Source: Candidatus Bathyarchaeota archaeon ex4484_205 (GTDB taxonomy: Archaea > Thermoproteota > EX4484-205). From it: a DNA stretch of 44,128 bases. Numbering within the stretch: the stretch's first letter is position 1; each line of letters begins with the position of its first letter. Shown in pieces: positions 6,839-24,172 of the stretch. Position numbers and translations under genes: made by a program. Location of the stretch: contig NJEE01000001.1 in assembly GCA_002255045.1 (NCBI GenBank), positions 1-44,128 of the forward strand, given 5' to 3'. The notes below the pieces were generated by a model. The model searched no databases. It worked only from the letters and a program-made list of their open reading frames with translations, and was not told the origin of the DNA.

Positions 6839-6975
6839 TGGTGCCTCTCGTCCCTAATGAGGGATGGCGAGCCGGAGTTTCAGGCAGAGCCTTTTGAACC
6901 GGCGAACCCCTACGGGAGGAGGTTTCTAAGTAGATCTTGAGCCTCCCGCCTTTGACCTGGCTCGGCCATCGCCGC
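6839..6975 (-). tRNA. tRNA-Leu(CAA), class II, with three inferred introns (37/38, T-loop 59/60, acceptor 70/71); CCA encoded
   Basis: Minus strand: GCGGCGA TG GCC GAGCCAGGTCAAA GGC G GGAGG CTCAAG[ATCTACTTAGAA]A CCTCC TCCCGTAGGGGTTC GCCGG TTCAAA[AGGCTCTGCCTGAAAC]T CCGGC TCGCC[ATCCCTCATTAGGGACGAGAG]GC A CCA. Confidence 0.8.
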
Positions 6976-7044
6976 CCAAATATTTCTTATTTCAAAAATT
7001 GGATTTAAGGATTTATATCAAGGAAGGAGAAAAGATAATGAGGT

Positions 7045-7320
7045 ATGCTTACAGAAATATTTGCAAGTCGTAAACATACAGAACTTCTTGAGTTTCTACT
7101 AGAAAATAGAGATAAGATTTTCACACAGTCGAAACTATCTGAATACTTGAGATGCTCACCTTCAACTATATCTCGGGTGGTGGACAACCTAAAAAGAGAA
7201 GGAATAATTCTGGAGGAGAGATTAGGTACTCAATTGAAAATTATTGCTCTTAATTTGGAGAGGGAAAAAGTGAAAATATTGATAGATTTCTATGAGAGGA
7301 TGAAAAAATGCGAGAAGTAA
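7045..7320 (+). CDS. small winged-HTH transcriptional regulator
   Basis: 91 aa. HTELLEFLLEN...QSKLSEYLRCSPSTISRVVDNLKREGIILEE. Confidence 0.6.
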   Translation: MLTEIFASRKHTELLEFLLENRDKIFTQSKLSEYLRCSPSTISRVVDNLKREGIILEERLGTQLKIIALNLEREKVKILIDFYERMKKCEK

Positions 7321-7967
7321 TGTATGTAATGGAGGATTTTACAGAACCACCAGAAGGGAAAATAGTAATTTTCGGTTTCCCAAGTTGGGGGAATGTAGGA
7401 CCCACGGTATGTGAGCAACTAGTTAAGTTTTCTGCGGCGAGGTATTTAGGTAGCATATATGCATCCCTATTCTCTGATTCGATTTTCACACAGGAAAGTG
7501 GATTCAGCGAGTTACCCTCAATAAAATTTTATCGCACGGAAAGAAGGATAGAAAAAGTGATAGTCGGAATAGGTAATTTTAAGATACTGAGGGAGAACCC
7601 AGAAGCTCATACCCTATGTGAATATCTCATCAAACTTGCAGAAAGATTCAGATGGAAAATGATAATAGGTGTAGAAAGTATAATGTCAGGAGATGGGGAG
7701 CATAGCGTAATTTTAACGAATAAAGAACTAATTAAGATGCTTCCAAAACATGTCACCGTTATGCAGGAAAAAAGTATGAAGAGTCTATTGGGAACCCTTT
7801 TAGGATTGTGTAGAATTAACAGAATAGATGGAATTGGAATATTTGCATCTTCTGAGAAATTACTTGCAAAGGAAAATACCATCATTAGTACTTTTAGGAC
7901 ATTACTTTACATACTTCACTCAGTCCTATCTATGGAGGAAAGTGAAACCAGTCAAAGGAGGGGTTAA
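7308..7967 (+). CDS. PAC2-family protein (proteasome assembly chaperone-like)
   Basis: 219 aa. The N-terminal IVIFGFPSWGNVGPTVCEQLVK resembles the GFPGxGxVG block of archaeal PAC2 proteins. Assignment is tentative. Confidence 0.4.
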   Translation: MREVMYVMEDFTEPPEGKIVIFGFPSWGNVGPTVCEQLVKFSAARYLGSIYASLFSDSIFTQESGFSELPSIKFYRTERRIEKVIVGIGNFKILRENPEAHTLCEYLIKLAERFRWKMIIGVESIMSGDGEHSVILTNKELIKMLPKHVTVMQEKSMKSLLGTLLGLCRINRIDGIGIFASSEKLLAKENTIISTFRTLLYILHSVLSMEESETSQRRG

Positions 7968-9273
7968 AGCCTCTCCATTTCTTTGAGTCGAAGACATATC
8001 TTTTCATAGGTTTAGACAGATGTCTATGAGCACGAGGAGGAGGAAGATATATACCTGGCTCTAAATCTCTTTTAACAGTTACTACGTCAGGAGCATATGA
8101 TATCGCACCACATTTCTTACAGATATAACCTTGATGAAGTCCTCTGGAGGTCATTCTTATACCACAGTTTACACATAAGGGTGGTCTACGAACATACTTT
8201 CTTGTAAGATAGTTAACTTCTAGTTTTTCAAGATTTAGTATATAGGAATTAGAATATCTATCTTGCTGAACCCCTCCATAACAAGAGACTACATCCTCCT
8301 CCTTTAACTTTAAAACCACTTCTCGAAAGCTTCCGGTTGGCTCATATGCAGCACATTTTATTTCCCCACTATGATCCGACAATTCAAAGAATACATGGCC
8401 ACCCTTATATATCTGAGGTTTCTGAGTAATTTTCCCTCTTATAAAAACAGATTGATATAACTGAAGGGAGGAGATCGGGACAGGATGCGTGGGAAGATGT
8501 ACCCCAGTCCCTTGATTGCTTCTGAAAATAACCCAAGAATCGATTGGCTCTTCTACCTTAATAAAATGGAGAGACTTCAAAACTGCGGAGGGAGACTCCC
8601 CTCTAACACCAAATAACACAGGATCTGGGCCGTGTGGAGCTATGAGAACACGTTTAGTTTCAGGATCTACGTTATTAAAGGTTTGAGAGCTGCAAGCCTT
8701 ATCCATCTCAAGTACGGAGAGCGTGTTAATTTTCCGTGGTTTACCCCAATTTTCTCTTTTACGATACGCTATGAGCTCATATGTATGATCTTCAAGTAGA
8801 AGAGAGCCAATTGCCGACACACCACCAACAATGCCACGGATGGAACGATAATAGTGGATGAAAGAACAATACTGTGAAACTTGGCTATAAATATAGCGGG
8901 GATTTAGAGGATATCTTAACGCGGCCATATATATCTCTGCAAATACTTGAGGGATCTCACCTTCAAGCGCTATTAGTATGGGATCCGAATGAGGCAAACC
9001 TTCTTTCACGATAGAGTCGAAAAATTTTGTAATTCTTTTATAAAAAGTTTTCAAATTTTGTATTTTTAGTTCAAATCTCAGGCAAACTGCAGCATTTCCA
9101 CGCGTTTTCCATGGAATATTTGGATTAAGACGAATAAGCAGAGGATAATCTTGAAAAACTACATTATAATTATCTATAAGATACTTGAGAAGTCGCCCTG
9201 CAACATAGGTAGTACAACCTCCTTTATGGGAATCTGTGTCATCTAGGGCAAGATGAAGAAGAATCATTCTCAC
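7930..9273 (-). CDS. tiaS: tRNA(Ile2) 2-agmatinylcytidine synthetase
   Basis: 447 aa. N-terminal LHLALDDTDSHKGGCTTYV, a central OB-like region and a C-terminal zinc ribbon CVNCGIRMTSRG...YICKKCG. Confidence 0.8.
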   Translation of the reverse strand: MRMILLHLALDDTDSHKGGCTTYVAGRLLKYLIDNYNVVFQDYPLLIRLNPNIPWKTRGNAAVCLRFELKIQNLKTFYKRITKFFDSIVKEGLPHSDPILIALEGEIPQVFAEIYMAALRYPLNPRYIYSQVSQYCSFIHYYRSIRGIVGGVSAIGSLLLEDHTYELIAYRKRENWGKPRKINTLSVLEMDKACSSQTFNNVDPETKRVLIAPHGPDPVLFGVRGESPSAVLKSLHFIKVEEPIDSWVIFRSNQGTGVHLPTHPVPISSLQLYQSVFIRGKITQKPQIYKGGHVFFELSDHSGEIKCAAYEPTGSFREVVLKLKEEDVVSCYGGVQQDRYSNSYILNLEKLEVNYLTRKYVRRPPLCVNCGIRMTSRGLHQGYICKKCGAISYAPDVVTVKRDLEPGIYLPPPRAHRHLSKPMKRYVFDSKKWRGFNPSFDWFHFPP

Positions 9274-9285
9274 TCACCTCTTTTT

Positions 9286-9426
9286 TGGTAGCGGGGGGTG
9301 GAATTTCAGGCAAAGCCTTTTGAACCACCGCTTGAGGGATTGAACCTATCTCAGGGTCTCTCCTTCATTATGAGCCCTGCGGGTTATCCGAATTATAGTC
9401 TTTAGACCTGGCTACCCCACCCCGCT
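9286..9426 (-). tRNA. initiator tRNA-Met(CAU) with four inferred insertions (D-loop, 37/38, variable loop, T-loop 59/60); CCA encoded
   Basis: Minus strand: AGCGGGG TG GGGT [29-nt D-loop region] ACCC G CAGGG CTCATA[ATGAAGGAGAG]A CCCTG [22-nt variable region] GGTGG TTCAAA[AGGCTTTGCCTGAAAT]T CCACC CCCCGCT A CCA. The A1:U72 pair and three G:C pairs closing the anticodon stem are archaeal initiator hallmarks. Confidence 0.8.
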
Positions 9427-9502
9427 ACAATTATTTGTAGTATGTAAGTTGGGATATAAACTTTAACATTAGATGTCAGGGCTTCGATTTCTGAGGGAAA
9501 GT

Positions 9503-9510
9503 TTTATATT
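9503..9510 (+). promoter_or_regulatory. TATA-box-like element upstream of the wHTH/NurA/HerA operon
   Basis: TTTTATAT lies about 30 nt upstream of the TTG start at 9539, which is compatible with a near-leaderless transcript. Confidence 0.4.
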
Positions 9511-9532
9511 TACGTTTACGTTTACGTTTACG
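9509..9532 (+). repeat. perfect tandem hexamer (TTTACG)x4 ending in the palindrome TTTACGTAAA
   Basis: Read directly from the sequence. It lies between the TATA-like box and the first start codon of the operon. Confidence 0.9.
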
Positions 9533-9538
9533 TAAAAG

Positions 9539-10006
9539 TTGGGAAGTATTAGGATCACGCTAAGAAGGAGGTATGGAGATGTGGAGATAGAGGGGGATAA
9601 TGTAGAAGAAGTGATAGAGTTATTGGAAGGATTTAAAAGAATAGATGAGGAGATCTCAGAAATTTTGAGAGAGCCTCTTAAAGGAGAGCTTGTCGGAATC
9701 GTGGATTATGACAGAAATCAAAAACCGATAATAAAGGTCAGAAAGGAATTTGTAACTGTAAAAGATGCGATTCTACTTCTTCTTTATGCATCAAAGGAGA
9801 GTGGGCTTAGCAACACAGAGATAAACGAACAACTCATCAAGAGTGGAATAAGGACAACAAGTCATGCTGCAAGGTTATCTGAATTGGCAAGGGAAGGGTA
9901 TGTTATGAGGAACGAGAAGGGAAAATATCTAGTTACAGAACAGGGAAAATATCAGGTACAGGAGATAATAAAGAGAATAAGAGGAGGTGAGAATGCTGAA
10001 ACTTGA
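9539..10006 (+). CDS. hypothetical protein with C-terminal winged-HTH (paralog A)
   Basis: 155 aa with a TTG start. C-terminal LSELAREGYVMRNEKGKYLVTEQG. The N-terminal IRITL...GDVEIEGDNVEEVIELL parallels the next ORF. Confidence 0.55.
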   Translation: MGSIRITLRRRYGDVEIEGDNVEEVIELLEGFKRIDEEISEILREPLKGELVGIVDYDRNQKPIIKVRKEFVTVKDAILLLLYASKESGLSNTEINEQLIKSGIRTTSHAARLSELAREGYVMRNEKGKYLVTEQGKYQVQEIIKRIRGGENAET

Positions 10007-10487
10007 GCTAAAGATAGACGGAAAAACCCTAAAGTTAGAGGGAGAAAGAGAGGAGATAGTGGAGGAGGCTCTGAAATTTCTCTATAACATATATCCTAAG
10101 TTATCTCTCATCAATAAGATTGTAGTCAGGCCAGATATAGAAAAATTGATTGAAAGAATATCTGCGTTTGTTAAGATACTTGAGGATGGAACTCTAATAA
10201 TTAAAGGAACTTTCCCAGCTGAAAAGGGCATATTGCTAGCACTAGCTGCGGCAAAGATTGGTGGAGATTGGGGAATCAGAGAGAAATACTTGGGAATCAG
10301 AGAACTGCAAGAATTATTGAATATAAAGAATAAAACTGTGAGAAATAATTGTAGTAAATTATCCAAGGATGGATATATAAGAAGGGATGAGAGAGGAAAA
10401 TATATTATCACAAATAAGGGGATATATTTTCTTCTCGAATCATTGTTCGGGGAGGAGGATGTAGCGGAGGTGAGTGGAGGAGGATAA
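9987..10487 (+). CDS. hypothetical protein with C-terminal winged-HTH (paralog B)
   Basis: 166 aa. LKLELKIDGKTLKLEGEREEIVEEAL and CSKLSKDGYIRRDERGKYIITNKG mirror ORF A. Overlaps ORF A by 20 nt. Confidence 0.55.
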   Translation: MRMLKLELKIDGKTLKLEGEREEIVEEALKFLYNIYPKLSLINKIVVRPDIEKLIERISAFVKILEDGTLIIKGTFPAEKGILLALAAAKIGGDWGIREKYLGIRELQELLNIKNKTVRNNCSKLSKDGYIRRDERGKYIITNKGIYFLLESLFGEEDVAEVSGGG

Positions 10488-10492
10488 GAAGT

Positions 10493-11314
10493 ATGAAAGC
10501 CCGCTACACCCTCATAGATAAATATTTTGAGGAAGTTATAAATTTAACCAGCGAATCTATTGGAAAATCAATATCACCATTCATAGAACCTGAGAGAGAA
10601 GAATTAACATTCGAGTTACAAGAAACTGTAGAAAACAGAATTCTAAAAGGCACAGATGTCAGCATAAAGATAGTAAGCCATGATTCAGAGAGGTTCTTCA
10701 TACTCACAAGGATAGCCACAGTAGAGAAAAATGGAGGATATAAAGTACACCGAAGTAAGCCAAAGTTGTTTATTGTAGATAGGAATGAAATGAGGCCCCT
10801 TAGTTTTGTTGAGTATTTGGCGAGAAAACGGAGTGTTGAAGACACTTACAATGGAATTATCCTATGGGATGGAGGTCTTCTAGATGTATCTAAGAGGGCT
10901 GTTAAGGGTATTTTGTTAGAATCAGAAAGGAGAAAAAACATTATTTTCGCGATCCCTAAGCGTCGTGTATTCTCAGAAATCCTTAGAAACAGATTGGAGA
11001 GCAATAGTGTGAAAGTACTAAGAAATGGGGGATTTTTTGAATTCTATATGAGAACCCATGAGAGAGCTCCTATACTGTATGGGCAGGGATATTCCCCCAA
11101 AGAAGTAGAAGGAGAGGTTAATGATATTTTCTCTGTCTTGAGAAGGGACTGTTTATATCGTGGCTATCCCGAAACGTTGAGACTAGCACATATATACTCT
11201 AAATTTACGAAACTTGAAATCCTGAGTTATCAAATAATTCTAAAAAAGAATTTCTCGGCCAAACCTTGGAAAGACAACTTTAGAAGACAAATATTAGGGG
11301 GCTTGTGGAGCTAA
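10493..11314 (+). CDS. possible NurA-like nuclease (short form)
   Basis: 273 aa. ILWDGGLLD is a candidate for the first acidic motif, and the C-terminal RGYPETLRLAHIYS resembles the GYPxxLxxAH end of NurA domains as I remember them. It sits immediately upstream of, and overlaps, a HerA-like ATPase gene. Confidence 0.4.
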   Translation: MKARYTLIDKYFEEVINLTSESIGKSISPFIEPEREELTFELQETVENRILKGTDVSIKIVSHDSERFFILTRIATVEKNGGYKVHRSKPKLFIVDRNEMRPLSFVEYLARKRSVEDTYNGIILWDGGLLDVSKRAVKGILLESERRKNIIFAIPKRRVFSEILRNRLESNSVKVLRNGGFFEFYMRTHERAPILYGQGYSPKEVEGEVNDIFSVLRRDCLYRGYPETLRLAHIYSKFTKLEILSYQIILKKNFSAKPWKDNFRRQILGGLWS

Positions 11315-12681
11315 TGCAGATATATAGAAAGAATGATCTAATTTTGGAGGTCATTGAATTTTCGCCTGAGATGCGGGAGAGGGGAGATTTTTTGATAATA
11401 GAGGATGTAAGAGGAGATCTCCTTGTTCAGGTAATCGATATGGAATATTTGGAATTACCTGGATTGTTAGAAGAAACCATTACTGACCTACCCTATATAG
11501 AGATAGCGGAAAATGGGGAAGAGAGCATTCTTTTAAAAATAAGAGATGCAACAGTCCTTAAGTGCAAGATAAGGGGGATACTTACCGATAAAGGAATTTT
11601 GACATCGACTTGGATTCCTTCTAGGGTTCACTCCAGCATATCACATATCACAGATGGAGAGGTATTGAGGTATGTAATAGGAGATAGGATAAAGAGGCCA
11701 ATTACTATAGGGAAGACGAGATTTGAAGAGGAAGTCGTCATTGATGCAAAATCTTTAGATGGTAAATTGACTGTAATTACAGGGAAAAAGGGGACAGGAA
11801 AGTCTCATCTTTCAAAGATTATTTTGAAGGGACTTTTAAGCTATGGGGCACCGTGTCTAGTTTTTGATATAAATGGAGAGTATGTAGGAGAGGATACGGT
11901 ATCCCTCACCCCAGGTGATACACTCAAATTCACTTTAAGGTATGTTGGATCGGATTCCTTTCTTAAGATCCTTGACGAAATATATGGATTACCTTCTAGT
12001 TCCTTGTGGGAAGTGCGTAGAGTATGGGAAAGCCTGGGAGAGAAGATCACATTAGAGAAACTAAAACATTCGATCAGAGCCAAGAGCATGAATGAGCATG
12101 TGAGGGATGCTATTTTGAGAAGGTTGGAGATGATAGAGGCTTCAAGAATATTTACGGATGAACCTAGCGAGGGGATTAGAATAGAGGAGAAAATACACAG
12201 CGACAGAGGAGTGATAGTAAATCTAAAGGGATTGCCTGGCGTCTTCAGGAGAATGATCGTTGACCTTATTCTTACGAAGATTATTTATTTACTTGAAAAG
12301 GAAAGAATTCCTCCTATATTTTTATTTGCTGAGGAGGCACATACTTACCATGATGAGAAGTTTTGGGAGGACCTTGTCACACGAATGAGACATATTGGAA
12401 TCTCCTTGATTTTTATCACAAATCAGCCGGATAGACTTTCTGAGACGATTTATAGACAGGCAGATAACGTTTTTCTTTTTAATTTCACGAATGAAAATGA
12501 CTTGAGTTTTGTGTCCAAAGCTTCTCGAGTAGACTCGGAAACCGTCCGTTCCTTAGTTTCAACTCTTCCACCGAGGTATTGTCTCATATTAGGAGAAGTT
12601 GTCGGAGACATACCTATAGTTCTTAGCGTTGTTGGAGATACCTATTTTAAATCTGGAAGAACAAAATGTTATTTCGACTAG
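11305..12681 (+). CDS. HerA/FtsK-superfamily ATPase (DUF87, HerA-like)
   Basis: 458 aa. N-terminal HAS-barrel-like GDFLIIEDVRGDLLVQVIDME, Walker A ITGKKGTGKSHL and Walker B IFLFAEEAH. Confidence 0.7.
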   Translation: MELMQIYRKNDLILEVIEFSPEMRERGDFLIIEDVRGDLLVQVIDMEYLELPGLLEETITDLPYIEIAENGEESILLKIRDATVLKCKIRGILTDKGILTSTWIPSRVHSSISHITDGEVLRYVIGDRIKRPITIGKTRFEEEVVIDAKSLDGKLTVITGKKGTGKSHLSKIILKGLLSYGAPCLVFDINGEYVGEDTVSLTPGDTLKFTLRYVGSDSFLKILDEIYGLPSSSLWEVRRVWESLGEKITLEKLKHSIRAKSMNEHVRDAILRRLEMIEASRIFTDEPSEGIRIEEKIHSDRGVIVNLKGLPGVFRRMIVDLILTKIIYLLEKERIPPIFLFAEEAHTYHDEKFWEDLVTRMRHIGISLIFITNQPDRLSETIYRQADNVFLFNFTNENDLSFVSKASRVDSETVRSLVSTLPPRYCLILGEVVGDIPIVLSVVGDTYFKSGRTKCYFD

Positions 12682-13979: not shown

Positions 13980-14018
13980 GACACAATAGATGCCAAGAAT
14001 TGATATTTTTATTTTCTT

Positions 14019-14348
14019 CTATAGTCCTAGAAGAGATGGCATAACTTCCAGAAATACAGATAATAGAATGGCACTTATGACAAGTCGTCTGCCAGTATAT
14101 TTCTCAAATCCGGAAAGCCATAGAACTAGACCTATAGAGAACAGACCTACACAGAGGTAGGGAACTATCCGTCTTATAAATTGAATAACAGCAGACACAA
14201 AATTGACAACCATAACTTCAATACTTTCCAATAAAGCATCGAAGAAAGTTTCTACCATAGAGGAGGTGGAATTGGTAGGGAAACAGAGGGCTATAGCTAT
14301 CTCTTTAGAGAGAAGGAGAGAAATAAGGAGAAGGAGAACTTTTTTCAT
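14019..14348 (-). CDS. small membrane/secreted protein
   Basis: 109 aa. N-terminal signal-like MKKVLLLLISLLL plus two further hydrophobic segments. Confidence 0.4.
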   Translation of the reverse strand: MKKVLLLLISLLLSKEIAIALCFPTNSTSSMVETFFDALLESIEVMVVNFVSAVIQFIRRIVPYLCVGLFSIGLVLWLSGFEKYTGRRLVISAILLSVFLEVMPSLLGL

Positions 14349-14381
14349 GAGCCATTAATACTTATTTTCTAACATACTTAA

Positions 14382-15086: not shown

Positions 15087-15150
15087 TATATTCCCTCTCA
15101 GACTAAAAGAAGGTTAGGTTTAAATTAAATTCTATAGAAAGAAACCAATT

Positions 15151-16188: not shown

Positions 16189-16191
16189 GGC

Positions 16192-16863: not shown

Positions 16864-16882
16864 GGGTAACTATTCTAATATT

Positions 16883-17199
16883 GCGGCGGCAACATGGCCG
16901 GGGGGCTTGCCGTCCCCTGTAACTTGAAACCGGCAACATGCAAGGGCCTGTAACCCGAGGGGCGTGGTTGACACTCTACGTAGGCCTGTCTCCTTAGGAA
17001 TGAGGGCCAGCCCATCGGGTGGGCGTAGGCCCATACTACCTTCCGTAGGGAAGGTAAGAGGGTTTAATCATCGAATCCGCCAGGCCCGGGAGGGAGCAAC
17101 GGTAAGGTGAGCAACCCACGCTGATGGTATACTGGCCGAACTGATGGGGACAGAGACCGCGTAGGGTTGTCGGCTGCCACCCAAGGGGGTTGCCGCCGC
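16883..17199 (+). ncRNA. signal recognition particle RNA (archaeal 7S RNA)
   Basis: GC-rich, about 317 nt. The ends GCGGCGGCAAC and GTTGCCGCCGC pair over 11 bp. Conserved helix-8 block GCCAGGCCCGGGAGGGAGCAACGGTAAGG. Confidence 0.85.
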
Positions 17200-17304
17200 A
17201 CTAGTCTTTAATTATGAATTATTAAGAAGAGAAGAGTAGTATTAAAGTTCCAGATTGATAGTGTGGAGCATTTTATAAGCTAAGGTTTTACATTCAGAAG
17301 ATAG

Positions 17305-17399
17305 TGGGCCGGGCCGGACTTGAACCGGCGACCTCCCGGTTATCAGCCGGGTGCTCTAACCTTCAGCGTGACAATCTCACTATGCTAAGCTACCGGCCC
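17305..17399 (-). tRNA. tRNA-Ile(GAU) with one ~20-nt D-loop insertion
   Basis: Minus strand: GGGCCGG TA GCTT AGC[ATAGTGAGATTGTCACGCTGAA]GGTTA GAGC A CCCGG CTGATAA CCGGG AGGTC GCCGG TTCAAGT CCGGC CCGGCCC A. Confidence 0.8.
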
Positions 17400-17443
17400 T
17401 TAAATTAAGTTATGACATCTATATTTTAAATTTTGGCATATTT

Positions 17444-18736: not shown

Positions 18737-18773
18737 ATTAAGTTTTTAAAGATGGAAAAGTAAAAATGAGATA

Positions 18774-19454
18774 ATGCTCGTTGTCTTACGGCTAGGACAT
18801 ATACTCTTTACTAGAGAGCTAGATATGGAGCTATGGAGAAGTTACAGAGAAGTTCTAATGAGGTTCCTAGAAAAAGGAAATAAGGGAGTCGTTGTAACAG
18901 GTGGAGGAGAAATAGCCAGAGGACAGATCAAAAAAGCTAGATTGCTGAATCTTGATTGGTCCCTATGCGATGAAATAGGAATCATGTGTTCCAGAATACA
19001 CGCACTTCTACTATACGGCTATATGAAGGAGAGGGCAATAGTAGAATTTACAGGAGACTTACAGAGAATAGTGAATAAGGTATGTGAGAACCGATTGGTA
19101 ATTACTGGAGGAATGTTTCCAGGTCAGTCTACTGATGCTGTTGCTGCATTAATCGCGGAGAGAGCTGAGGCAGATCTTGTTATAAAAGCTTTGGATGTGG
19201 AGGGAGTATATGACAAAGACCCTAAGAAATATGCAGAAGCAAAACTCCTCAAAAAGATCTCTGCAAAGAAATTATGGGAAATGATATCAACTGAGGAGTT
19301 ACTAGCGGGAGAATACAAACTACTCGATCCTATCGCGTTGAAAATACTAGAGAGATCCCAAATACCAATTATTTTCATTGATGGTAGAGATGTGAAGAAT
19401 TTGGAGAAGACATTTCAAGGAGAGGATGTTGGGACGAGAGTTATTTACACATAG
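18774..19454 (+). CDS. pyrH: archaeal-type UMP kinase (amino-acid kinase fold)
   Basis: 226 aa. VVVTGGGEIAR, ITGGMFPGQSTDAVAALIAE and VEGVYDKDPKK. Confidence 0.8.
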   Translation: MLVVLRLGHILFTRELDMELWRSYREVLMRFLEKGNKGVVVTGGGEIARGQIKKARLLNLDWSLCDEIGIMCSRIHALLLYGYMKERAIVEFTGDLQRIVNKVCENRLVITGGMFPGQSTDAVAALIAERAEADLVIKALDVEGVYDKDPKKYAEAKLLKKISAKKLWEMISTEELLAGEYKLLDPIALKILERSQIPIIFIDGRDVKNLEKTFQGEDVGTRVIYT

Positions 19455-19530
19455 GTCTTATGAGATTGATTAATGACTACAAAATTCTCCTAAAAAAATA
19501 AATATTCCTATGTTATAACCCAGATTCGGT

Positions 19531-19711
19531 GGGGCCGTCGTCTAAACGAAAGGGATAGCCAGGTAGGACGGCGGGCTCCAGCCACTATTGAAGGGTTCGC
19601 TGACTAAGTGGATGAAGAATGGTTGGAGCTCGGGAGGAACCCGTAGGTGTAAAAGCCGGGGAAATGTGAGCGTTCAAAGGGCTTTGCCTGGAAGTCGCTC
19701 CGGCCCCACCA
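19531..19711 (+). tRNA. tRNA-Trp(CCA) with four inferred insertions, including a 57-nt 37/38 intron; CCA encoded
   Basis: GGGGCCG TC GTCT [22-nt D-loop region] GGAC G GCGGG CTCCAG[57 nt, 19582-19638]A CCCGT [23-nt variable region] GAGCG TTCAAA[GGGCTTTGCCTGGAAG]T CGCTC CGGCCCC A CCA. Confidence 0.8.
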
Positions 19712-19760
19712 TGAAAACCTTTAATTTCTTTACAGAAAATAAAATAATAGGTGACCCTTA

Positions 19761-20006
19761 TTGACTAAACATGCGTTTGTATTAATAAATGTAGATATAG
19801 GAACAGAGAAGGAAATACTGAGTGAATTAAAGAAAATACCATATATCAAGGAGGCCTGGATGGTGTATGGTGTTTACGACATGGTTGTTAAAATAGAGGC
19901 AGATTCATTGGAGCAGGTGAAGGAAGCTATAAGCAGTAACATTAGGAAGCTGGAAGGGGTGAGAAACACGTTGACCTTGATTCCCATTGAGGGATTTACC
20001 TCTTAG
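19761..20006 (+). CDS. stand-alone Lrp/AsnC ligand-binding (RAM) domain protein
   Basis: 81 aa. AFVLINVDIGTEKEIL...AWMVYGVYDMVVKIEADSLEQV...VRNTLTLI. Confidence 0.6.
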   Translation: MTKHAFVLINVDIGTEKEILSELKKIPYIKEAWMVYGVYDMVVKIEADSLEQVKEAISSNIRKLEGVRNTLTLIPIEGFTS

Positions 20007-20065
20007 ATTTTTTCTGATAATATTAAAATTCAAATATTCTCACGTAGATGAAGATTCGTTAAAGG

Positions 20066-20434
20066 ATGCCAAGTATTTCCCCCAGGAAGATGCGACGACT
20101 ACAAGATAGAATGCTTAAGAAGATGGGATTGGCAATGGAAGAACTCTCTGATGTAGATAAAGTTATCATTCTCACTTCTTCCAAACGTATTGAAATACTG
20201 AATCCTACAGTAACGAAGTTTGTACTTCAACAGGGTCAGGACATTTACCAGGTGATTGGAACTACAAAGATAGAGGAAATAGAAGAAGTTGAAGAAATAG
20301 AAATACCAGAGGAAGATATAATGTTAGTCTCACAGCAGGTAGGATGTGACTATGAAACAGCGAAGAAAGCTCTAGAGAGCACGGGAGGAGATATTGCACA
20401 GGCGATTCTATTACTTAAAAGAAGACCGGTCTAA
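20066..20434 (+). CDS. nac: nascent polypeptide-associated complex protein (archaeal NAC alpha homolog with UBA domain)
   Basis: 122 aa. NAC beta-barrel region followed by the C-terminal UBA-like IMLVSQQVGCDYETAKKALESTGGDIAQAILLL. Confidence 0.8.
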   Translation: MPSISPRKMRRLQDRMLKKMGLAMEELSDVDKVIILTSSKRIEILNPTVTKFVLQQGQDIYQVIGTTKIEEIEEVEEIEIPEEDIMLVSQQVGCDYETAKKALESTGGDIAQAILLLKRRPV

Positions 20435-20908
20435 ACCTTTACGGACCTTTACGGCAACACCTCTCTTGAAAAATCTTGCTTCCCGAGGTGATAAGAGAAG
20501 CTTGCCTACAGCGAGTAGAGAATCATTTTCATCCACTACTATGACCTCATCTCCGGAACGTAGAAGCATATCTACTTCGAGCACATACTTTGCAAAGACA
20601 TTCCTCCCTTTTCGTATATACTTACTTACAGAAGAAGGAACAATAACTCTATGACGGGGTTTACTAAATGTTTGTCTCAAGAGTTCACCACCCGCTATAC
20701 TAAGAGAGAAAAGACCTGTAGAGGGCACTAGGGTAGCTATCAATCTTTCGGTCTCAGTATAGAGCCGACGTATCTTACCATTCTTCCCTCTTTCCACACT
20801 TCCTAGAGATTTCAAAACCTTGGAGCCGAACCCGAAACCAAATTGATAATCCAGGAGGTCCTTAATATAGAGTTTTTCTAATATAGTGATACTTGAACAA
20901 TTAGCCAA
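20411..20908 (-). CDS. PUA-domain RNA-binding protein
   Basis: 165 aa. The C-terminal VFAKYVLEVDMLLRSGDEVIVVDENDSLLAVGKLLLS...GVAVKVRKG is a typical PUA fold pattern. Confidence 0.6.
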   Translation of the reverse strand: MANCSSITILEKLYIKDLLDYQFGFGFGSKVLKSLGSVERGKNGKIRRLYTETERLIATLVPSTGLFSLSIAGGELLRQTFSKPRHRVIVPSSVSKYIRKGRNVFAKYVLEVDMLLRSGDEVIVVDENDSLLAVGKLLLSPREARFFKRGVAVKVRKGLDRSSFK

Positions 20909-20949
20909 ACCTATTTATTCAATATGTGAGGAAGTAAATATTTAGATTT

Positions 20950-21432
20950 ATGAACTGTGAAATATGTGGATCACCAATATATGGAAAAGCTAAAAAAGTG
21001 TTGATAGATGGCGTACCAATGCTGGTATGTCAGGCATGTGCAAATCTTTCTTCAACGGAGATAGTTGAGAAGAAAACTACAGAAGGGAGAAGAGTATACC
21101 AAAGAAGAAGACTCATTAAAAAGGTAGGGGAGAAGAAGACTTTCTGGAACGATGATCTGACGTTAATAGATAACTATGGAGAAAGAATAAGGATGGCGAG
21201 AGAAGAAATGGGAATGACCTTAGAAGAGTTAAGCCGTAAATCAGGGTTAAAAGTGAGCTATCTTAGAAATATAGAAAACCAGAGGATGAAACCCACCTTG
21301 GGAGAGAGCCGAATTTTGGAGCATATACTTGATATCGCAATACTCACAAAAACGCCGGAGTATGGAGATAAACAAAGAACGAAAGTTCGAAGAGATGGAT
21401 TAACATTAAGTGATATATTGAGAATGAAGTGA
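20950..21432 (+). CDS. archaeal MBF1-type transcription factor (zinc ribbon + Cro/C1 HTH)
   Basis: 160 aa. CEICGSPIYG...LVCQAC is followed by IRMAREEMGMTLEELSRKSGLKVSYLRNIE. Confidence 0.8.
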   Translation: MNCEICGSPIYGKAKKVLIDGVPMLVCQACANLSSTEIVEKKTTEGRRVYQRRRLIKKVGEKKTFWNDDLTLIDNYGERIRMAREEMGMTLEELSRKSGLKVSYLRNIENQRMKPTLGESRILEHILDIAILTKTPEYGDKQRTKVRRDGLTLSDILRMK

Positions 21433-22025
21433 AGAAAATAATAGATCAGATGACTGAGATATACGTACTTCGAATGGGGCATAGGTACATACGTGATCTG
21501 AGAATCTCCACACATTGTGGATTGGTTGCCTGGGCACTAGGAGCTAAGGGAATACTCTTCACGGGTATGTATGATAAAGAAATGATGAAGAAATTGAGAG
21601 AAACTGTAGAGAGGTGGGGTGGAGAATTTGAGATAGGATATGTTGAGAATTGGAGGGAATATATTCTTGAAGAAAGAAGAAGAGGAACATATATTATCCA
21701 TCTAACCATGTATGGAATAAATATACCAACCGTAGAGAAGGCTCTCCAGAAAATTCTGAGATGGAAGAGAATATTAGTAATTATAGGGGCTGAGAAGATG
21801 CCTCGGGAAGTATATTTACTGGCACACCTCAATGTAGCTATAAAGAATGTGCCACACTCAGAGGTTGCAGCATTATCCATCTTTATGGATAGAATTACAA
21901 ATGGGAAGGCGCTTCTAGAATATCCAGAACATATGAAGATAAAAATAATCCCACAAATCAGGGGAAAAGTTATAGAGAGAGGAGAACCCAAATATATAGA
22001 GGGAGACATCAATAGGGAAGTTTGA
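21429..22025 (+). CDS. tRNA (cytidine56-2'-O)-methyltransferase
   Basis: 198 aa. YVLRMGHRYIRDLRISTHCGLVAWALGAKG matches the aTrm56 N-terminal block. SPOUT-type C-terminal region. Confidence 0.7.
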   Translation: MKKIIDQMTEIYVLRMGHRYIRDLRISTHCGLVAWALGAKGILFTGMYDKEMMKKLRETVERWGGEFEIGYVENWREYILEERRRGTYIIHLTMYGINIPTVEKALQKILRWKRILVIIGAEKMPREVYLLAHLNVAIKNVPHSEVAALSIFMDRITNGKALLEYPEHMKIKIIPQIRGKVIERGEPKYIEGDINREV

Positions 22026-22029
22026 TAGA

Positions 22030-22575
22030 ATGAAAGTATCTGAAGAGCTTTATTTGAAGGTTGCAGCACTCGTAGGAGGGGATGATGCTATTGGTGTTGT
22101 TTCTGCTTTACTAGATTTGAAAAAAGCCTCAGATGAGGAGATTGCAAACAGAACAGGTCTCAGACTCCCTAATGTTAGAAAAGTGCTTTACAAATTGTTG
22201 GACTCTTCTTTAGTTGCATTTGAGGAAAGAAGAGAGAGAATGGAACAGACAGTTTTCTATTGGTATCCTCTACCAGAGCAAGTATACGGATTTATTCAAA
22301 CAGAAGAGAGAAACCTAATTAAGAGACTTAAAGCTAAATTCAATTACCTTAGATCACATGAATTTTATCATTGTGGAACCCCCACTTGTAGGAGGCTGAC
22401 TTTCGAGGAAGCCGTAGAGACATTATTTAAGTGTCCAACTTGTGGAAAACCTCTCAACAGAGTTGATGTTACAGATATTATAGAAGCGATAGAAGGGAGA
22501 ATTGAAACCATACAGAGAGAATTGAAAGAGTCCTTCGGAGTACCCATCAAAACATTAAAATCTCGGAGAAAATAA
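22030..22575 (+). CDS. tfe: transcription factor E (TFIIE-alpha homolog)
   Basis: 181 aa. A winged helix (EEIANRTGLRLPNVRKVLYKLLDSSLV) plus a zinc ribbon (HCGTPTC...CPTCGKPL). Confidence 0.8.
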   Translation: MKVSEELYLKVAALVGGDDAIGVVSALLDLKKASDEEIANRTGLRLPNVRKVLYKLLDSSLVAFEERRERMEQTVFYWYPLPEQVYGFIQTEERNLIKRLKAKFNYLRSHEFYHCGTPTCRRLTFEEAVETLFKCPTCGKPLNRVDVTDIIEAIEGRIETIQRELKESFGVPIKTLKSRRK

Positions 22576-22588
22576 AAACTATAAATGG

Positions 22589-22689
22589 GCCGAGGTACCC
22601 TAGCCATACAACACTAGAAAGGTAGGGGGCAAGCCTGCTAAGCTTGTGCCCGTAAGGGCTCGCGGGTTCAAATCCCGCCCTCGGCGCCA
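22589..22689 (+). tRNA. tRNA-Ser(GCU), class II, with one ~13-nt D-loop insertion; CCA encoded
   Basis: GCCGAGG TA CCC TAGCC[ATACAACACTAGA]AAGGTA GGG.. CAAGC CTGCTAA GCTTG TGCCCGTAAGGGCTC GCGGG TTCAAAT CCCGC CCTCGGC G CCA. Confidence 0.8.
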
Positions 22690-22690
22690 T

Positions 22691-22765
22691 GGGCGCGTCG
22701 TCCAGCCCGGTTAGGACGCCGCTCTTACGAAGCGGTGGTCGCCGGTTCGAATCCGGCCGCGCCCA
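22691..22765 (+). tRNA. tRNA-Val(UAC), intron-free
   Basis: GGGCGCG TC GTCC AGCCCGGTTA GGAC G CCGCT CTTACGA AGCGG TGGTC GCCGG TTCGAAT CCGGC CGCGCCC A. Starts 1 nt after the CCA of tRNA-Ser. Confidence 0.9.
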
Positions 22766-22774
22766 TCAAGTAAA

Positions 22775-22780
22775 TTTTTT
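22775..22780 (+). terminator. oligo-T tract after the Ser-Val tRNA pair
   Basis: TTTTTT lies 10 nt downstream of tRNA-Val. Archaeal terminators are commonly T-tracts. Confidence 0.35.
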
Positions 22781-22808
22781 AGGAGAGAGAGTGAGGATGA
22801 ATTATATA

Positions 22809-22899
22809 GGGCCGGTAGAACAGATGGTAGGTTCGCTGGCTTCGCAATCTTTTTCGAGAAAGCCAGAGGTCGGGGGTTCAAGTCCCCCCCGGTCCACCA
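22809..22899 (+). tRNA. tRNA-Ala(CGC) with a 14-nt anticodon-loop intron; CCA encoded
   Basis: GGGCCGG TA GAAC AGATGGTAG GTTC G CTGGC TTCGCA[14 nt]A GCCAG AGGTC GGGGG TTCAAGT CCCCC CCGGTCC A CCA. The G3:U70 alanine identity pair is present. Confidence 0.85.
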
Positions 22900-23963
22900 A
22901 TATTAAAACGTAATATAGCAGCTATTCCACCAAATCCTTTCAATATTTTTCCAGGTTCTTCTTTGGAGTTGATTATAATAATTTCTCCTCCATTTTCCTC
23001 CACCATTTGAAAAATATTTTCGACCTCTCTGCGTTCTTCATCGCCTATATTTGCCAGAAAATCATCTGTGATCAATAATTTTTGAACCGCTCTCATCTCT
23101 ATCGCGTACTTTACATTGTCATATCCATAAGTAGCCAGATGATTCTTTGCGATCTTTATAAGAAAATCTTGTATAATGACATTTTCTTCAATGATTCTTA
23201 ATTTCTTCTGTACATTTCTCAACACTCCACTTCGTAACGTCTCCTTAATGCCAGATATTGTGCCAGAGGTAGCAAAGCCCAGATAGATTACTCTCTTCCA
23301 AAGATCTGGATATTTAGATTGAAGATATGTAGCTAATTTATTTTTAATAAATCCAGGACCTACTATTACAATGTAATATTCTCGAGTGGGCTCAATTTGC
23401 TTCATAGCCTTTACGATTGAGGAGAGAAAGAATAGCAGTTGCTCACTATTTTCAGAGGCATATCTCTTTGAGGATATCTCTGAATGAATTCTTTGAATGT
23501 GGGAAAAACCGGATGTCTCAATTAAAGCTAATGTGGCCTCTTCGCGGTCCATGGCAATTACAATTAGAGGTACAGAGGGATGTCTTGAGGCATATAGTTG
23601 TTTCAGTTGGTAGTTGAGCCACTGTCTTTTCCTAATTAAATATTTGTTTCCTGGTTGTATTACGAGAGAATGTCTATGACCCTTTGTTCCCTCAAGATCC
23701 TCAGGGCATTCCATAACTATTCCATCTAACTTTAACATGTTGCTTTCCAAGTCAAGGAATTTTGAGAGTACCTTGAGAGTGAGCCAGACTTTAACCTTTG
23801 TTTTCCCCACCCGATTTCCTCCAACCGTTTTAATAACTCTGTGAGAAAACCCTGAGACAAGGTCGTCTTTCTCTATAACTTGATAAAGAGTCCAGAGGTC
23901 TTCCTTAAATCGAGGTACTAACTTAATAATTCCTCTTTTCTCATCATAGCTAAGAATTTTCAA
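22878..23963 (-). CDS. pelA: Pelota (Dom34 homolog, ribosome rescue / no-go decay factor)
   Basis: 361 aa. MKILSYDEKRGIIKLVPRFKEDLWTLYQVI at the N-terminus, and an eRF1-like C-terminal domain ending KGFGGIAAILRF. The last ~22 nt overlap tRNA-Ala on the opposite strand. Confidence 0.85.
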   Translation of the reverse strand: MKILSYDEKRGIIKLVPRFKEDLWTLYQVIEKDDLVSGFSHRVIKTVGGNRVGKTKVKVWLTLKVLSKFLDLESNMLKLDGIVMECPEDLEGTKGHRHSLVIQPGNKYLIRKRQWLNYQLKQLYASRHPSVPLIVIAMDREEATLALIETSGFSHIQRIHSEISSKRYASENSEQLLFFLSSIVKAMKQIEPTREYYIVIVGPGFIKNKLATYLQSKYPDLWKRVIYLGFATSGTISGIKETLRSGVLRNVQKKLRIIEENVIIQDFLIKIAKNHLATYGYDNVKYAIEMRAVQKLLITDDFLANIGDEERREVENIFQMVEENGGEIIIINSKEEPGKILKGFGGIAAILRFNIGGPGGT

Positions 23964-24044
23964 GTTCAGAAATTTAATTACTAGATGGAATTTAATATTA
24001 TTGACGAAAAGGTTATTTTATGGTGAGTCGATAATTCGAATGCA

Positions 24045-24172
24045 GGGGGCGTGGGCTAGAGAAATCGGCCAATCTGGTCTATGCTTCGTGGCTTGGGCCC
24101 TCCTATTAGGTGAGAACCCACGAGGTCCCAGGTTCAAAAGGCGATAGCCTGAGAATCCTGGCGCCCCCACCA
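24045..24172 (+). tRNA. tRNA-Pro(UGG) with three inferred introns (D-loop, 37/38, T-loop 59/60); CCA encoded
   Basis: GGGGGCG TG GGCT AG[AGAAATCGGCCAAT]CTGGTCTA TGCT T CGTGG CTTGGG[CCCTCCTATTAGGTGAGAA]C CCACG AGGTC CCAGG TTCAAA[AGGCGATAGCCTGAGAA]T CCTGG CGCCCCC A CCA. Confidence 0.8.

Follow-up and report, generated by a model that had tools for sequence, protein, structure and literature searches.

A common hairpin in the minimal T-loop introns of four tRNA genes from a Brockarchaeota-related archaeon

Introduction

Position 59/60 is among the known positions of non-canonical archaeal tRNA introns with a bulge-helix-bulge (BHB) structure (PMC4090602; Marck & Grosjean 2003; Sugahara 2008), and the known hosts of 59/60 introns are Crenarchaeota, Thaumarchaeota and Nanoarchaeota. 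For the Thermoproteales, intron transposition was proposed in 2010: according to PMC4033280 and PMC4090602, similar introns occupy canonical and non-canonical positions, a cross-position similarity that is the hallmark of the claim, and the gains were dated to after speciation. In the Asgard Atabeyarchaeia and Freyarchaeia, most tRNA genes are interrupted, many of them multiply, with up to four introns per gene (Supplementary Data 4; Valentin-Alvarado et al. 2024, PMC11291895); shared intron sequences were not analysed in that paper (PMC11291895). According to the description of tRNAscan-SE 2.0, non-canonical introns have a clade-specific consensus, which is captured in models for Crenarchaeota/Euryarchaeota and for Thaumarchaeota (PMC8450103).

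Here, we analyse a 44,128-nt stretch of DNA (the window) from an uncultured hydrothermal archaeon, in which an earlier note had reported near-identical T-loop inserts in different tRNAs. These inserts share with known 59/60 BHB introns their position, size class and BHB architecture, their presumed recognition by the endonuclease independently of the tRNA body, and the presence, alongside them within a gene, of introns at 37/38 and in the D-loop. Whereas 59/60 introns are thus already known, the window differs in that one hairpin sequence is common to four of the five T-loop introns of a 22-kb stretch, each in a different tRNA, and in its host. The organism has a PolD gene, and the relatives nearest to it by aRF1 (61-66% identity) include a Brockarchaeota MAG; the organism is related to Brockarchaeota and is not a member of the Thermoproteales, so that comparison with the latter serves as analogy only.

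Results

In-silico splicing of the tRNA genes in the window gave canonical tRNAs with the expected anticodons in all 12 cases (ARAGORN). The inserts of the Leu, iMet, Trp and Pro genes (16-17 nt) have the common form N-GGC-(3-4 nt)-GCC-TGRR-AN (Table 1). As the earlier note had stated, TTCAAAT is regained when an insert is removed, and deletion of each block leaves GTTCAAAT-type T-loops. All four related inserts have a strict hBHBh' motif at 59/60 (H=4, h=5, h'=3), which in the Leu intron consists of a TTCA/TGAA central helix, the 5-bp T-stem as outer helix and a 3-bp GGC/GCC inner helix; the central helices of the Trp and Pro introns each include one G.U pair. In this geometry, intron nucleotide 1 belongs to the 5' bulge, and A57 is paired with T11. 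The AGGC/GCCT hairpin proposed earlier holds as a 4-bp thermodynamic MFE alternative, whereas the inner helix of the BHB geometry is the 3-bp GGC/GCC. For the Leu intron, the BHB conformer has an energy of -11.7 kcal/mol as compared with an MFE of -14.0, and across the four introns the BHB conformers lie 1.2-3.9 kcal/mol above the MFE and are still negative at 70 C.

Table 1. Positions of the host tRNA genes and their T-loop introns in the window
Feature	Position	Strand	Details
tRNA-Leu(CAA) gene, CCA encoded	6839..6975	-	Three introns: 37/38, 12 nt; 59/60, 16 nt; acceptor 70/71, 21 nt. ARAGORN on spliced product: tRNA-Leu(caa)
Leu 59/60 T-loop intron	6877-6892	-	AGGCTCTGCCTGAAAC; strict hBHBh'
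Initiator tRNA-Met(CAU) gene	9286..9426	-	Four introns: D-loop, 20 nt; 37/38, 11 nt; 47/48, 17 nt; 59/60, 16 nt. ARAGORN: tRNA-Met(cat); initiator acceptor AGCGGGG...CCCCGCTA
iMet 59/60 T-loop intron	9303-9318	-	AGGCTTTGCCTGAAAT; strict hBHBh'
tRNA-Trp(CCA) gene	19531..19711	+	Four introns: D-loop, 13 nt; 37/38, 57 nt; 47/48, 18 nt; 59/60, 16 nt. ARAGORN: tRNA-Trp(cca); alignment with L192 and L198 orthologues
Trp 59/60 T-loop intron	19679-19694	+	GGGCTTTGCCTGGAAG; strict hBHBh'
tRNA-Pro(UGG) gene	24045..24172	+	Three introns: D-loop, 13 nt; 37/38, 19 nt; 59/60, 17 nt. ARAGORN on spliced product: tRNA-Pro(tgg)
Pro 59/60 T-loop intron	24139-24155	+	AGGCGATAGCCTGAGAA; strict hBHBh', hairpin loop 4 nt
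tRNA-Thr(UGU) gene	24211..24314	+	Two introns: 37/38, 12 nt; T-loop, 15 nt. ARAGORN on spliced product: tRNA-Thr(tgt)
Thr(UGU) T-loop intron	24282-24296	+	ACATCAAAGGAACAA; unrelated; best register 58/59; relaxed BHB without inner hairpin

Based on the strict motifs and the ARAGORN-valid tRNAs obtained on removal, we conclude that all four blocks are bona fide archaeal tRNA introns of minimal size at 59/60, and we infer that they are spliced. In the precursor, the T-stem (49-53/61-65) would form the outer helix and intron TGRR would pair with T-loop residues T54-A57 in a 4-bp central helix, which would be flanked by two 3-nt bulges (one made of A58-A59 and the first intron nucleotide, the other of the final two intron nucleotides and T60) and capped by the GGC-loop-GCC inner hairpin. 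The geometry would exactly match that of a canonical 37/38 intron, except that the T-arm substitutes for the anticodon arm. The splicing endonuclease for tRNAs is predicted to cut both bulges and an RNA ligase to join A59 to T60, which would give back TTCAAAT.

The T-loop insert of tRNA-Thr(UGU) is unrelated in sequence, as described previously, and does not fold stably by itself. In the register first assigned, the insert reads CATCAAAGGAACAAA (24283-24297, + strand), which is sequence-equivalent to the placement in Table 1, and because AAA occurs on both flanks, any register between 56/57 and 59/60 is compatible with the sequence. The only acceptable BHB (H=4, GTTC/GAAC; h=2; h'=1; shift -1) corresponds to 58/59, which fits better than the 59/60 position originally given.

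We also evaluated how alike the four related copies are. The identities counted earlier for Leu and iMet (14/16) and for iMet and Trp (13/16) were reproduced, and Leu and Trp are identical at 12/16 positions. With at most one mismatch allowed, GGCNNNGCCTGRAA occurs three times in the window, always within a T-loop, as compared with 0.74 occurrences expected, and no copies were found in the window outside T-loops. Among the 27 window introns, the 59/60 group forms the only strong similarity cluster (z 3.7-6.8), and none of the introns at other tRNA positions resembles it. The introns are more alike than the T-stems of the four genes, in which only 1-3 of 5 positions agree. The exon forces 4-5 of the 16 nucleotides, and the earlier note had considered that pairing with TTCAAAT could account for the whole similarity; however, that pairing does not prescribe the GGC/GCC hairpin of the four copies, as this stem occurs in only 6/85 (7%) of unbiased environmental minimal 59/60 introns. 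Given the stem, the truly unpaired positions (1, 5-7 and 16) are alike at 8/15, with no significant excess over unrelated organisms (P = 0.16-0.19), whereas for the hairpin loops alone (TCT/TTT/TTT) the similarity exceeds that among other GGC-type introns (P=0.03). At position 1, position 16 or both, where there is no constraint, the four copies all differ.

The same design is found in other archaea. Acceptor-verified tRNA genes with N-GGC-N3-4-GCC-TGRR-NN at 59/60 number at least 22 and belong to Aenigmatarchaeota, Woesearchaeota, Nanoarchaeota, Micrarchaeota, Hadarchaeota, Thermoplasmatales, Nitrososphaerota and Brockarchaeota. The design spans at least nine isoacceptor families across many phyla; its hosts elsewhere are Pro, Gly, Ala, His, Phe, Ile, Ser and Thr, with tRNA-Pro the commonest in other phyla (10/22). 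GGC-type introns from unrelated organisms have a mean pairwise identity of 12.2/16, and the window copies match such introns at up to 14-16/16 positions; one of them (L086), in an unrelated tRNA, matches the iMet intron at 16/16. PMC8450103 does not appear to describe N-GGC-N3-4-GCC-TGRR-AN at 59/60 across DPANN, Hadarchaeota, Thermoplasmatales and Brockarchaeota, although its models and the window family have in common lineage-typical consensus features of non-canonical introns beyond the BHB.

In the unbiased sample, GGC/GCC is the modal stem among GC-only 3-bp stems (6/9). The inner helix covaries: in 46 unbiased environmental 16-nt 59/60 introns, inner-helix pairs were formed in 45/46 and 43/46 cases with five pair types each, and the covariation score of 0.395 (versus 0.083) was reached in 0/500 shuffles. 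The orthologous tRNA-Trp of the L144/L169/L182 lineage has a CCT/AGG stem at 59/60, which indicates that the stem sequence is evolutionarily free. We compared co-resident 59/60 introns in about 8-11 other genomes, where sets comprise two to four minimal or short introns and G+C-rich genomes such as L144 are included. None of the 21 co-resident pairs shares a stem; their hairpin similarity averages 0.13 (maximum 0.62), as compared with 0.76 (minimum 0.60) for the six window pairs.

Relatives provide information on age. In L192 and L198, the Trp intron has orthologues (AGGCCTTGCCTGAGAT and GGGCCTTGCCTGAAAT, respectively) in syntenic tRNA-Trp genes, which also have the D-loop and 37/38 introns of the window gene. 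Because the aRF1 of these relatives is only 59% identical to that of the window, the Trp copy is old rather than a recent insertion, and the intron family is old in the clade. Between lineages, the host stems have undergone compensatory changes whereas the Trp hairpin has stayed the same, which points to a constraint at the sequence level that could drive convergence too. The same iMet intron sequence is present in five near-clonal metagenome contigs, as is the same Pro intron sequence in the sister strain L190, and no polymorphism in presence or sequence was detected among those contigs and the NCBI sister strain. The tRNA-Ser genes of L192 and L194 have hairpin-less T-loop introns; with Thr(UGU), this indicates that the enzyme of the clade can do without the hairpin. 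Mature tRNA G+C is 66.5% as compared with 38% for the genome, and from these values the organism looks thermophilic.

Discussion

We infer that a single intron family, with the hairpin GGC-YTT/GATA-GCC, comprises all four copies. For its origin, we favour old copying between tRNA genes over pure convergence and give copying about an even chance of being correct. In this reading, the intron of one tRNA gene would have been copied, within this lineage, into the invariant T-loop of others, either in an event resembling intron transposition or through gene conversion of a short patch between the GTTCAAA...TC flanks that the genes share; selection would then have kept a compact, thermostable, strict BHB while the unconstrained positions 1 and 16 drifted. 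Non-independence is supported by the rarity of GGC/GCC, by the dissimilarity of co-resident pairs elsewhere, and by loops that are alike on T-stems that are not. Of the two options raised in the earlier note, spread between genes is thus the somewhat better reading, in an old form and not as recent transposition.

The other option, convergence, is one we consider possible but lean against. Each tRNA would have gained or kept its own 59/60 intron under constraints that leave few workable minimal solutions: TTCA forces TGRR, A is preferred in bulges, a 3-bp hairpin in a thermophile would be G+C-only, and GGC/GCC is favoured beside the bulge. Recurrence of the design in unrelated archaea, with matches to the window copies as close as those within it, weighs for this reading and against copying, as do the prevalence of GGC/GCC among GC-only stems in a host with thermophile-like tRNA G+C, the non-significant identity at free positions, the divergence at positions 1 and 16, the frozen Trp hairpin and the absence of cross-position likeness. 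However, the same constraints yielded no common stem in co-resident pairs elsewhere, even in G+C-rich L144; T-loop introns that have no hairpin are tolerated both in the window and in sister lineages; the L144/L169/L182 tRNA-Trp uses another stem at 59/60; environmental introns show free covariation of the inner helix; and the loop similarity (P=0.03) speaks against convergence.

Near-identity alone is no proof of transposition. The window resembles the Thermoproteales, as PMC4033280 and PMC4090602 describe them, in having very similar introns across isoacceptors of one unusually intron-rich genome; unlike there, the likeness is confined to one position and partly exon-forced, the taxon is different, and, with Trp the orthologue compared across lineages, one copy is demonstrably old and a gain event is undocumented. 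A mini-intron that is still spreading as young copies would explain the high identities in unrelated tRNAs and the single strong cluster among the window introns, yet we regard it as quite unlikely given the ancient Trp copy, the differences among all four copies at positions 1 and/or 16, the lack of polymorphism among near-clonal contigs and the sister strain, the confinement of window copies to T-loops, and free-position identity no higher than between GGC-type introns of unrelated organisms. The family is neither recent nor a demonstrably active mobile element. That the blocks are never excised, as T-loop expansions of pseudogenes or unusual functional tRNAs, would suit genes that standard tRNA finders overlook and whose splicing is deduced, but is extremely improbable given the exact recovery of the universal T-loop, the strict BHB in every block, hosts among which are initiator Met and Trp (a single tRNA species decodes each), the same covarying architecture in over 100 tRNA genes from the environment, and retention of the inserts in orthologues.

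The window holds 27 introns in 12 tRNA genes, including five in its elongator Met gene; like Atabeyarchaeia and Freyarchaeia, it lies outside the Thermoproteales and has most tRNA genes interrupted, many by several introns, whereas its phylum is different, its local density is higher and one gene reaches five introns. Separately, the 57-nt intron at 37/38 of tRNA-Trp contains C/D-box-like motifs.

Bulge-helix-bulge anatomy of the T-loop inserts

T-loop inserts interrupt five tRNA genes at the places that the earlier note had reported, and its counts of identity between them were correct. Using a strict scan for the hBHBh' form of the bulge-helix-bulge (BHB) motif, in which h, H and h' denote the outer, central and inner helices, we found that the 59/60 inserts of tRNA-Leu, iMet, Trp and Pro (the GGC-type inserts) have H = 4, h = 5 bp and h' = 3 bp. 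Each displays a 3-nt bulge AA|N on one strand and a 3-nt bulge AN|T on the other, with a 4-bp helix between them, and both h and h' reach the 2 bp or more of the strict form. The outer helix is the T-stem (49-53/61-65), the central helix pairs T54-A57 (TTCA) with intron TGAA, TGGA or TGAG, the 5' bulge comprises A58, A59 and intron nucleotide 1, the inner hairpin is GGC-loop-GCC, and the 3' bulge consists of the final two intron nucleotides and T60. The canonical 37/38 intron has the same geometry, which is here moved onto the T-arm. Nearest-neighbour folding favours the T-stem together with the 4-bp AGGC/GCCU hairpin described from the sequence, but the inner helix of the BHB is the 3-bp GGC/GCC. 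The minimum free-energy (MFE) fold, which gives the 4-bp hairpin instead, was therefore rejected as a display of the BHB; evaluated explicitly, the BHB conformer lies merely 1.2-3.9 kcal/mol above the MFE and is still negative at 70 °C.

Excision of 27 inserts in silico restored TTCAAAT, and ARAGORN called all 12 products canonical tRNAs with the expected anticodons. Six of the 27 window introns have the strict hBHBh' form, namely the four GGC-type introns, iMet 47/48 and Pro 37/38. No ribozyme core or mobility protein of a group I/II intron or autonomous mobile element accompanies these inserts of 16-17 nt, and Rfam matches in the window are confined to tRNA and SRP RNA. Judged by predicted structure, the GGC-type inserts are very likely BHB introns spliced by endonuclease. 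The Thr(UGU) insert is indeed unrelated to them and has no hairpin, but it suits 58/59 better than 59/60, as a BHB fits at 58/59 alone, one nucleotide upstream, where it is relaxed (H = GTTC/GAAC, h = 2, h' = 1). This insert belongs to a different intron class.

Positions of the features discussed (window positions unless a comparison locus is named)
Feature	Locus	Position	Strand	Remark
tRNA genes, manual parsing	window	6273-28449		12 genes in 22 kb
tRNA-Leu 70/71 intron	window	6845-6865	-	ATCCCTCATTAGGGACGAGAG
tRNA-Leu 59/60 intron	window	6877-6892	-	16 nt
TiaS	window	7930-9273	-	agmatidine synthase gene; adjoins iMet
iMet 59/60 intron	window	9303-9318	-	16 nt
Archaeal SRP RNA	window	16884-17198		Rfam match
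tRNA-Ile(GAU)	window	17305-17399	-	D-loop intron
tRNA-Trp 37/38 intron	window	19582-19638	+	57 nt
tRNA-Trp 59/60 intron	window	19679-19694	+	16 nt
PUA/TGT_C2 protein	window	20411-20908	-
Trm56	window	~21429-22025		Cm56 methyltransferase
tRNA-Pro 37/38 intron	window	24098-24116	+	CCCTCCTATTAGGTGAGAA
tRNA-Pro 59/60 intron	window	24139-24155	+	17 nt
tRNA-Thr(UGU) 58/59 intron	window	24282-24296	+	relaxed BHB
Elongator tRNA-Met(CAU)	window	24343-24499	-	five introns
Gly(UCC)-like tRNA	L086	13749-13869	+	multi-intron
tRNA-Ser(GCU) beside Pelota	L192	11211-11325	+	T-loop intron GACATGAAAG, 10 nt
tRNA-Ser(GCU) beside Pelota	L194	~11365-11510	+	T-loop intron AAAGCACATGAAAA, 14 nt

Constraint from the exon and diversity of the inner hairpin

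Four to five of the 16 intron positions are forced, in that TGRR has to match TTCA in the central helix and the A after it is near-invariant across homologues; by these rules the hairpin is not forced by the exon. An unbiased metagenome scan with one restricted pattern, in which the inner 10-11 nt were left free, gave at least 102 matches with perfect T-stems (loci L070-L189), and minimal 59/60 introns of 16-17 nt were abundant in environmental archaea. The matches listed include 85 unique minimal 59/60 introns with diverse inner stems (TCT/xGA, GGT/RCC, CCT/TGG, GGA/TCC, GCN and AT-rich forms); among them GGC/GCC accounts for 6 of 85 (7%), and the 17 TCT/xGA stems all occur in tRNA-Glu(UUC), a single orthologous lineage. 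The bulge-adjacent hairpin pairs of the 46 introns of the 16-nt class among the matches listed are paired in 45/46 and 43/46, with five pair types each, and covary with a score of 0.395 vs 0.083 in shuffles, a score that 0 of 500 shuffles reached (n = 46), which suggests that the inner helix is selected as a structure and its sequence is free.

Recurrence of the GGC design and identity between copies

Scanning a genome collection for N-GGC-N3-4-GCC-TGRR-NN in a T-loop context gave 55 matches, about 30 of which lay in bacteria, had unpaired flanks and are put down to chance, and 22 of which were acceptor-verified T-loop introns of archaeal tRNA genes. The hosts of the latter are Pro (10), Gly (3), Ala, His, Phe, Ile, Ser and Thr (1 each) and three unidentified tRNAs, from Aenigmatarchaeota, Woesearchaeota, Nanoarchaeota, Micrarchaeota, Hadarchaeota, Thermoplasmatales, Nitrososphaerota and Brockarchaeota. 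No locus in the species-representative genome collection held two matches to the GGC-type pattern. The commonest host across DPANN and Thermoplasmatales is tRNA-Pro, a prevalence that may reflect a 59/60 intron of long standing in Pro.

Near-identity by itself is weak evidence at a site whose exon sets part of the intron sequence. The Leu, iMet, Trp and Pro 59/60 introns share 12-14 of 16 positions and form the sole strong similarity cluster among the 27 window introns, and no window intron from elsewhere in a tRNA is like them. GGC-type 16-nt introns of unrelated organisms agree pairwise at a mean of 12.2/16, window pairs at 14, 13 and 12 of 16, and window introns vs unrelated copies at up to 14-16/16. 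The 16/16 match is between the iMet intron and the 59/60 intron of the Gly(UCC)-like tRNA of L086, a 387-kb JGI contig of an AT-rich organism. At the positions outside both the forced set and the stem (1, 5-7 and 16), the window trio of Leu, iMet and Trp scores 8/15 vs a background-trio average of 4.9, which is not significant (P = 0.16; P = 0.185 with a column-composition null). For the loop by itself the score is 7/9 (P = 0.03). The excess identity at unpaired positions, on which the earlier note had let its proposal of intron spread depend, is thus marginal at best. In the comparison with the host T-arms that it proposed, the introns are more alike than the T-stems, which have only 1-3 of 5 positions in common. 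The Leu 70/71 intron, in the acceptor stem, and the Pro 37/38 intron both contain CCCTC..ATTAGG..GAGA; this pair, the best in the window between different positions (z = 3.9), was rejected as a genuine cross-position pair because it is not significant after approximately 300 comparisons.

As a co-resident control, we compared all fetched loci with at least two acceptor-verified 59/60 introns, which comprise 21 pairs from approximately 8-11 independent genomes and include two loci with four T-loop introns each. Hairpin similarity between these pairs averaged 0.13 (maximum 0.62) and a stem was shared in 0/21, and the six window pairs averaged 0.76 (minimum 0.60) and shared the stem in every case. 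Four of four copies with one hairpin in a single genome is unusual by this measure. In L096 and L144, four T-loop-interrupted tRNA genes lie side by side. A CCT/AGG stem occupies the same 59/60 site in the tRNA-Trp orthologue of another lineage (L144, L169 and L182), where the T-stem and acceptor are unchanged.

Age of the Trp copy and orthologues in relatives

The synteny of aRF1, AA-kinase and tRNA-Trp is kept in the relatives L192/L193 (JGI, 46% G+C) and L198 (Logan), whose aRF1 is 59% identical to that of the window. The tRNA-Trp genes of L192 and L198 have three introns in common with the window, a D-loop intron, a long 37/38 intron and a 16-nt 59/60 intron (AGGCCTTGCCTGAGAT and GGGCCTTGCCTGAAAT, respectively), and each lineage has one private intron. 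Together, the synteny and the three common introns show that the Trp 59/60 copy is old and vertically inherited. Between the lineages the GGC-YTT-GCC hairpin is constant and thus better conserved than the host T-stem (GAGCG vs GGGAG) and acceptor stem, which are altered by compensatory substitutions; the hairpin appears to be constrained at the sequence level or to evolve very slowly. The tRNA-Trp 37/38 intron carries C/D-box-like motifs (GGATGA and CTGA), which are conserved in L192 and L198, and in the window it has a terminal D box that looks degenerate; we take it to resemble the box C/D guide RNA of other archaeal tRNA-Trp introns.

By aRF1 (65-66%), the nearest loci are L195, from a MAG labelled Brockarchaeota, and L197. 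In both, the Trp-like T-loop holds an insert of 47-48 nt, and the hairpin of the tRNA-Ala 59/60 intron in one is unlike that in the other. The tRNA-Ser(GCU) genes beside Pelota in L192 and L194 contain hairpin-less T-loop introns and share a D-loop intron with the syntenic window gene, which has no T-loop intron; on present sequences this difference is a lineage-specific gain or loss at 59/60. These introns and that of Thr(UGU) suggest that the enzyme of the clade does not need the GGC hairpin. Near-clonal contigs and the sister strain revealed no polymorphism in the four GGC-type introns. On the nearest contigs neither iMet nor Leu lies near TiaS (48% identical), no tRNA-Pro lies upstream of Pelota in relatives, and the extra 7.6 kb upstream of the window on an 83-kb ENA scaffold holds no additional tRNAs.

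Origin of the shared intron

Transposition, the sole mechanism proposed for gain of archaeal tRNA introns, rests on sequence similarity within one order. As related in PMC4033280 and PMC4090602, the latter of which lists 59/60 among non-canonical intron sites, "large-scale intron transposition" in Thermoproteales was based on similar introns in different tRNAs (Fujishima 2010). A transposed cluster in that sense, as far as those accounts convey it, contains similar introns in different isoacceptors of one genome, which the window also has, and related introns at different tRNA positions, which the window lacks.

With roughly even confidence, we favour an old copying of the GGC-type intron between tRNA genes. 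Pure convergence of independently acquired 59/60 introns is possible but the more doubtful account. In its favour, the GGC design recurs across phyla, GGC/GCC is modal among GC-only stems, the free-position identity is not significant, and the Trp hairpin is frozen between lineages. Copying is favoured over convergence by the absence of a common stem from all co-resident pairs elsewhere against its presence in every window copy, by the low background frequency of GGC/GCC among the matches listed, by the hairpin-less introns tolerated in the clade, and by the loop similarity among the window copies.

An unlikely extension of the copying account is that GGC-YTT-GCC is a sequence-specific, copy-competent mini-intron that spread among T-loops via the splicing machinery. 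Such an intron might, for example, be inserted through reverse splicing or through ligation and then recombine via the invariant GTTCAAA/TC flanks, and the constancy of its hairpin would stem from recognition by a factor or from a role of its own. If so, the recurrence across phyla would represent an ancient, repeatedly propagated intron family and not convergence. Recent or active transposition of the mini-intron, the recent form of the Thermoproteales-like spread raised in the earlier note, is improbable, since the copies differ at positions 1 and 16, the Trp copy is ancient, strains show no polymorphism and off-site copies are absent from the window. Given the BHB geometry, the idea that the inserts are not introns is scarcely credible.

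The locus carries the shared-intron pattern into a Brockarchaeota-related lineage, and the similarity argument is here supplied with controls: an unbiased environmental 59/60 background, a co-resident comparison and an orthologue that dates one copy. What is added to the known picture, besides a new host lineage, is a quantified caution, in that the 59/60 "archetype" recurs across archaea.

Intron load and detection of tRNA genes

The 12 tRNA genes contain 27 introns (2.25/gene), with four each in iMet and Trp, three each in Leu and Pro, and Val(UAC) as the sole uninterrupted gene. Introns outside 59/60 are mostly relaxed BHBs of 10-22 nt, most of which the strict scan misses for that reason. 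The Ile D-loop, Ser D-loop and Trp 47/48 introns scored poorly as BHBs at their first boundaries; their exact boundaries are uncertain, but the intron count is unaffected. By eye, the Ile intron fits 20 nt, shifted by 2 nt. The anticodon-loop intron of Thr(GGU) must be 10 nt, not 11, for a canonical product.

Five separate excisions from elongator tRNA-Met, two in the D-loop/D-arm (16 and 18 nt) and one each at 31/32, 37/38 and 43/44 (16 nt each), are needed to leave a canonical 75-nt tRNA that ARAGORN accepts. Its second D-arm intron contains GCCCCC and its 37/38 intron the complementary GGGGGC, which hints at a possible long-range pairing or obligatory splicing order. We found no published report of a five-intron tRNA gene, the maxima found being three (PMC8450103) and four (PMC11291895 supplement). 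The idea that four-intron genes are unprecedented was rejected, because Supplementary Data 4 of the 2024 Asgard study (PMC11291895) lists a maximum of four per gene, which the window iMet and Trp equal.

Very intron-rich tRNA sets outside Thermoproteales are known from the Asgard Atabeyarchaeia and Freyarchaeia (PMC11291895). The window load, from a small sample of 12 genes, exceeds the whole-genome figures found, which are 71 introns in 46 genes of Pyrobaculum calidifontis (~1.5/gene; PMC8450103) and 228 in three Asgard genomes (~1.8/gene by our own estimate; PMC11291895). Standard finders detected 2/12 (ARAGORN) and 7/12 (Rfam tRNA model) of the window genes, and ARAGORN miscalls tRNA-Ile(GAU) as tRNA-Phe, so genomes of such lineages would look tRNA-deficient in routine annotation without BHB-aware tools. 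The 3' CCA is encoded in seven genes (Leu, iMet, Trp, Ser, Ala, Pro and Thr-UGU) and not in five (Thr-CGU, Ile, Val, eMet and Thr-GGU).

Host lineage

The window is archaeal, has approximately 38% G+C, and encodes both DNA polymerase D (PolD) subunits, RACo, TiaS, aRF1 and Pelota; to our knowledge, PolD is absent from classical Thermoproteales and other Crenarchaeota. Contigs near-identical to it come from the NCBI MAG GCA_003661625.1 and from several metagenome assemblies of ENA and Logan. The "DOMB18" labels and QMWM accession series of these contigs presumably point to the Dombrowski 2018 study of Guaymas Basin hydrothermal sediment. The low identity of the next-best relatives of TiaS (48%), Pelota (38%) and aRF1 (61-66%, one a Candidatus Brockarchaeota MAG; 55-59% to Bathyarchaeia and other Thermoproteota) indicates that the lineage is isolated. 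Mature window tRNAs have 66.5% G+C, a level typical of thermophiles. No EndA gene was identified within the window. In the relative L198 there is a gene for an EndA catalytic unit, whose best PDB matches are 1A79 and 5X89. Subunit typing of the clade enzyme from L198 was rejected, since a single gene does not settle the architecture; the best matches are the alpha4 enzyme of M. jannaschii and the enzyme of M. kandleri.

Genes for tRNA modification are interspersed with the window tRNA genes, namely TiaS, Trm56 and one for a PUA/TGT_C2 protein. Trm56 and the PUA/TGT_C2 gene were placed by matching called genes of the comparison locus L056 to window ORFs. The T-loop residue targeted by Trm56 falls within the central helix of the 59/60 intron.
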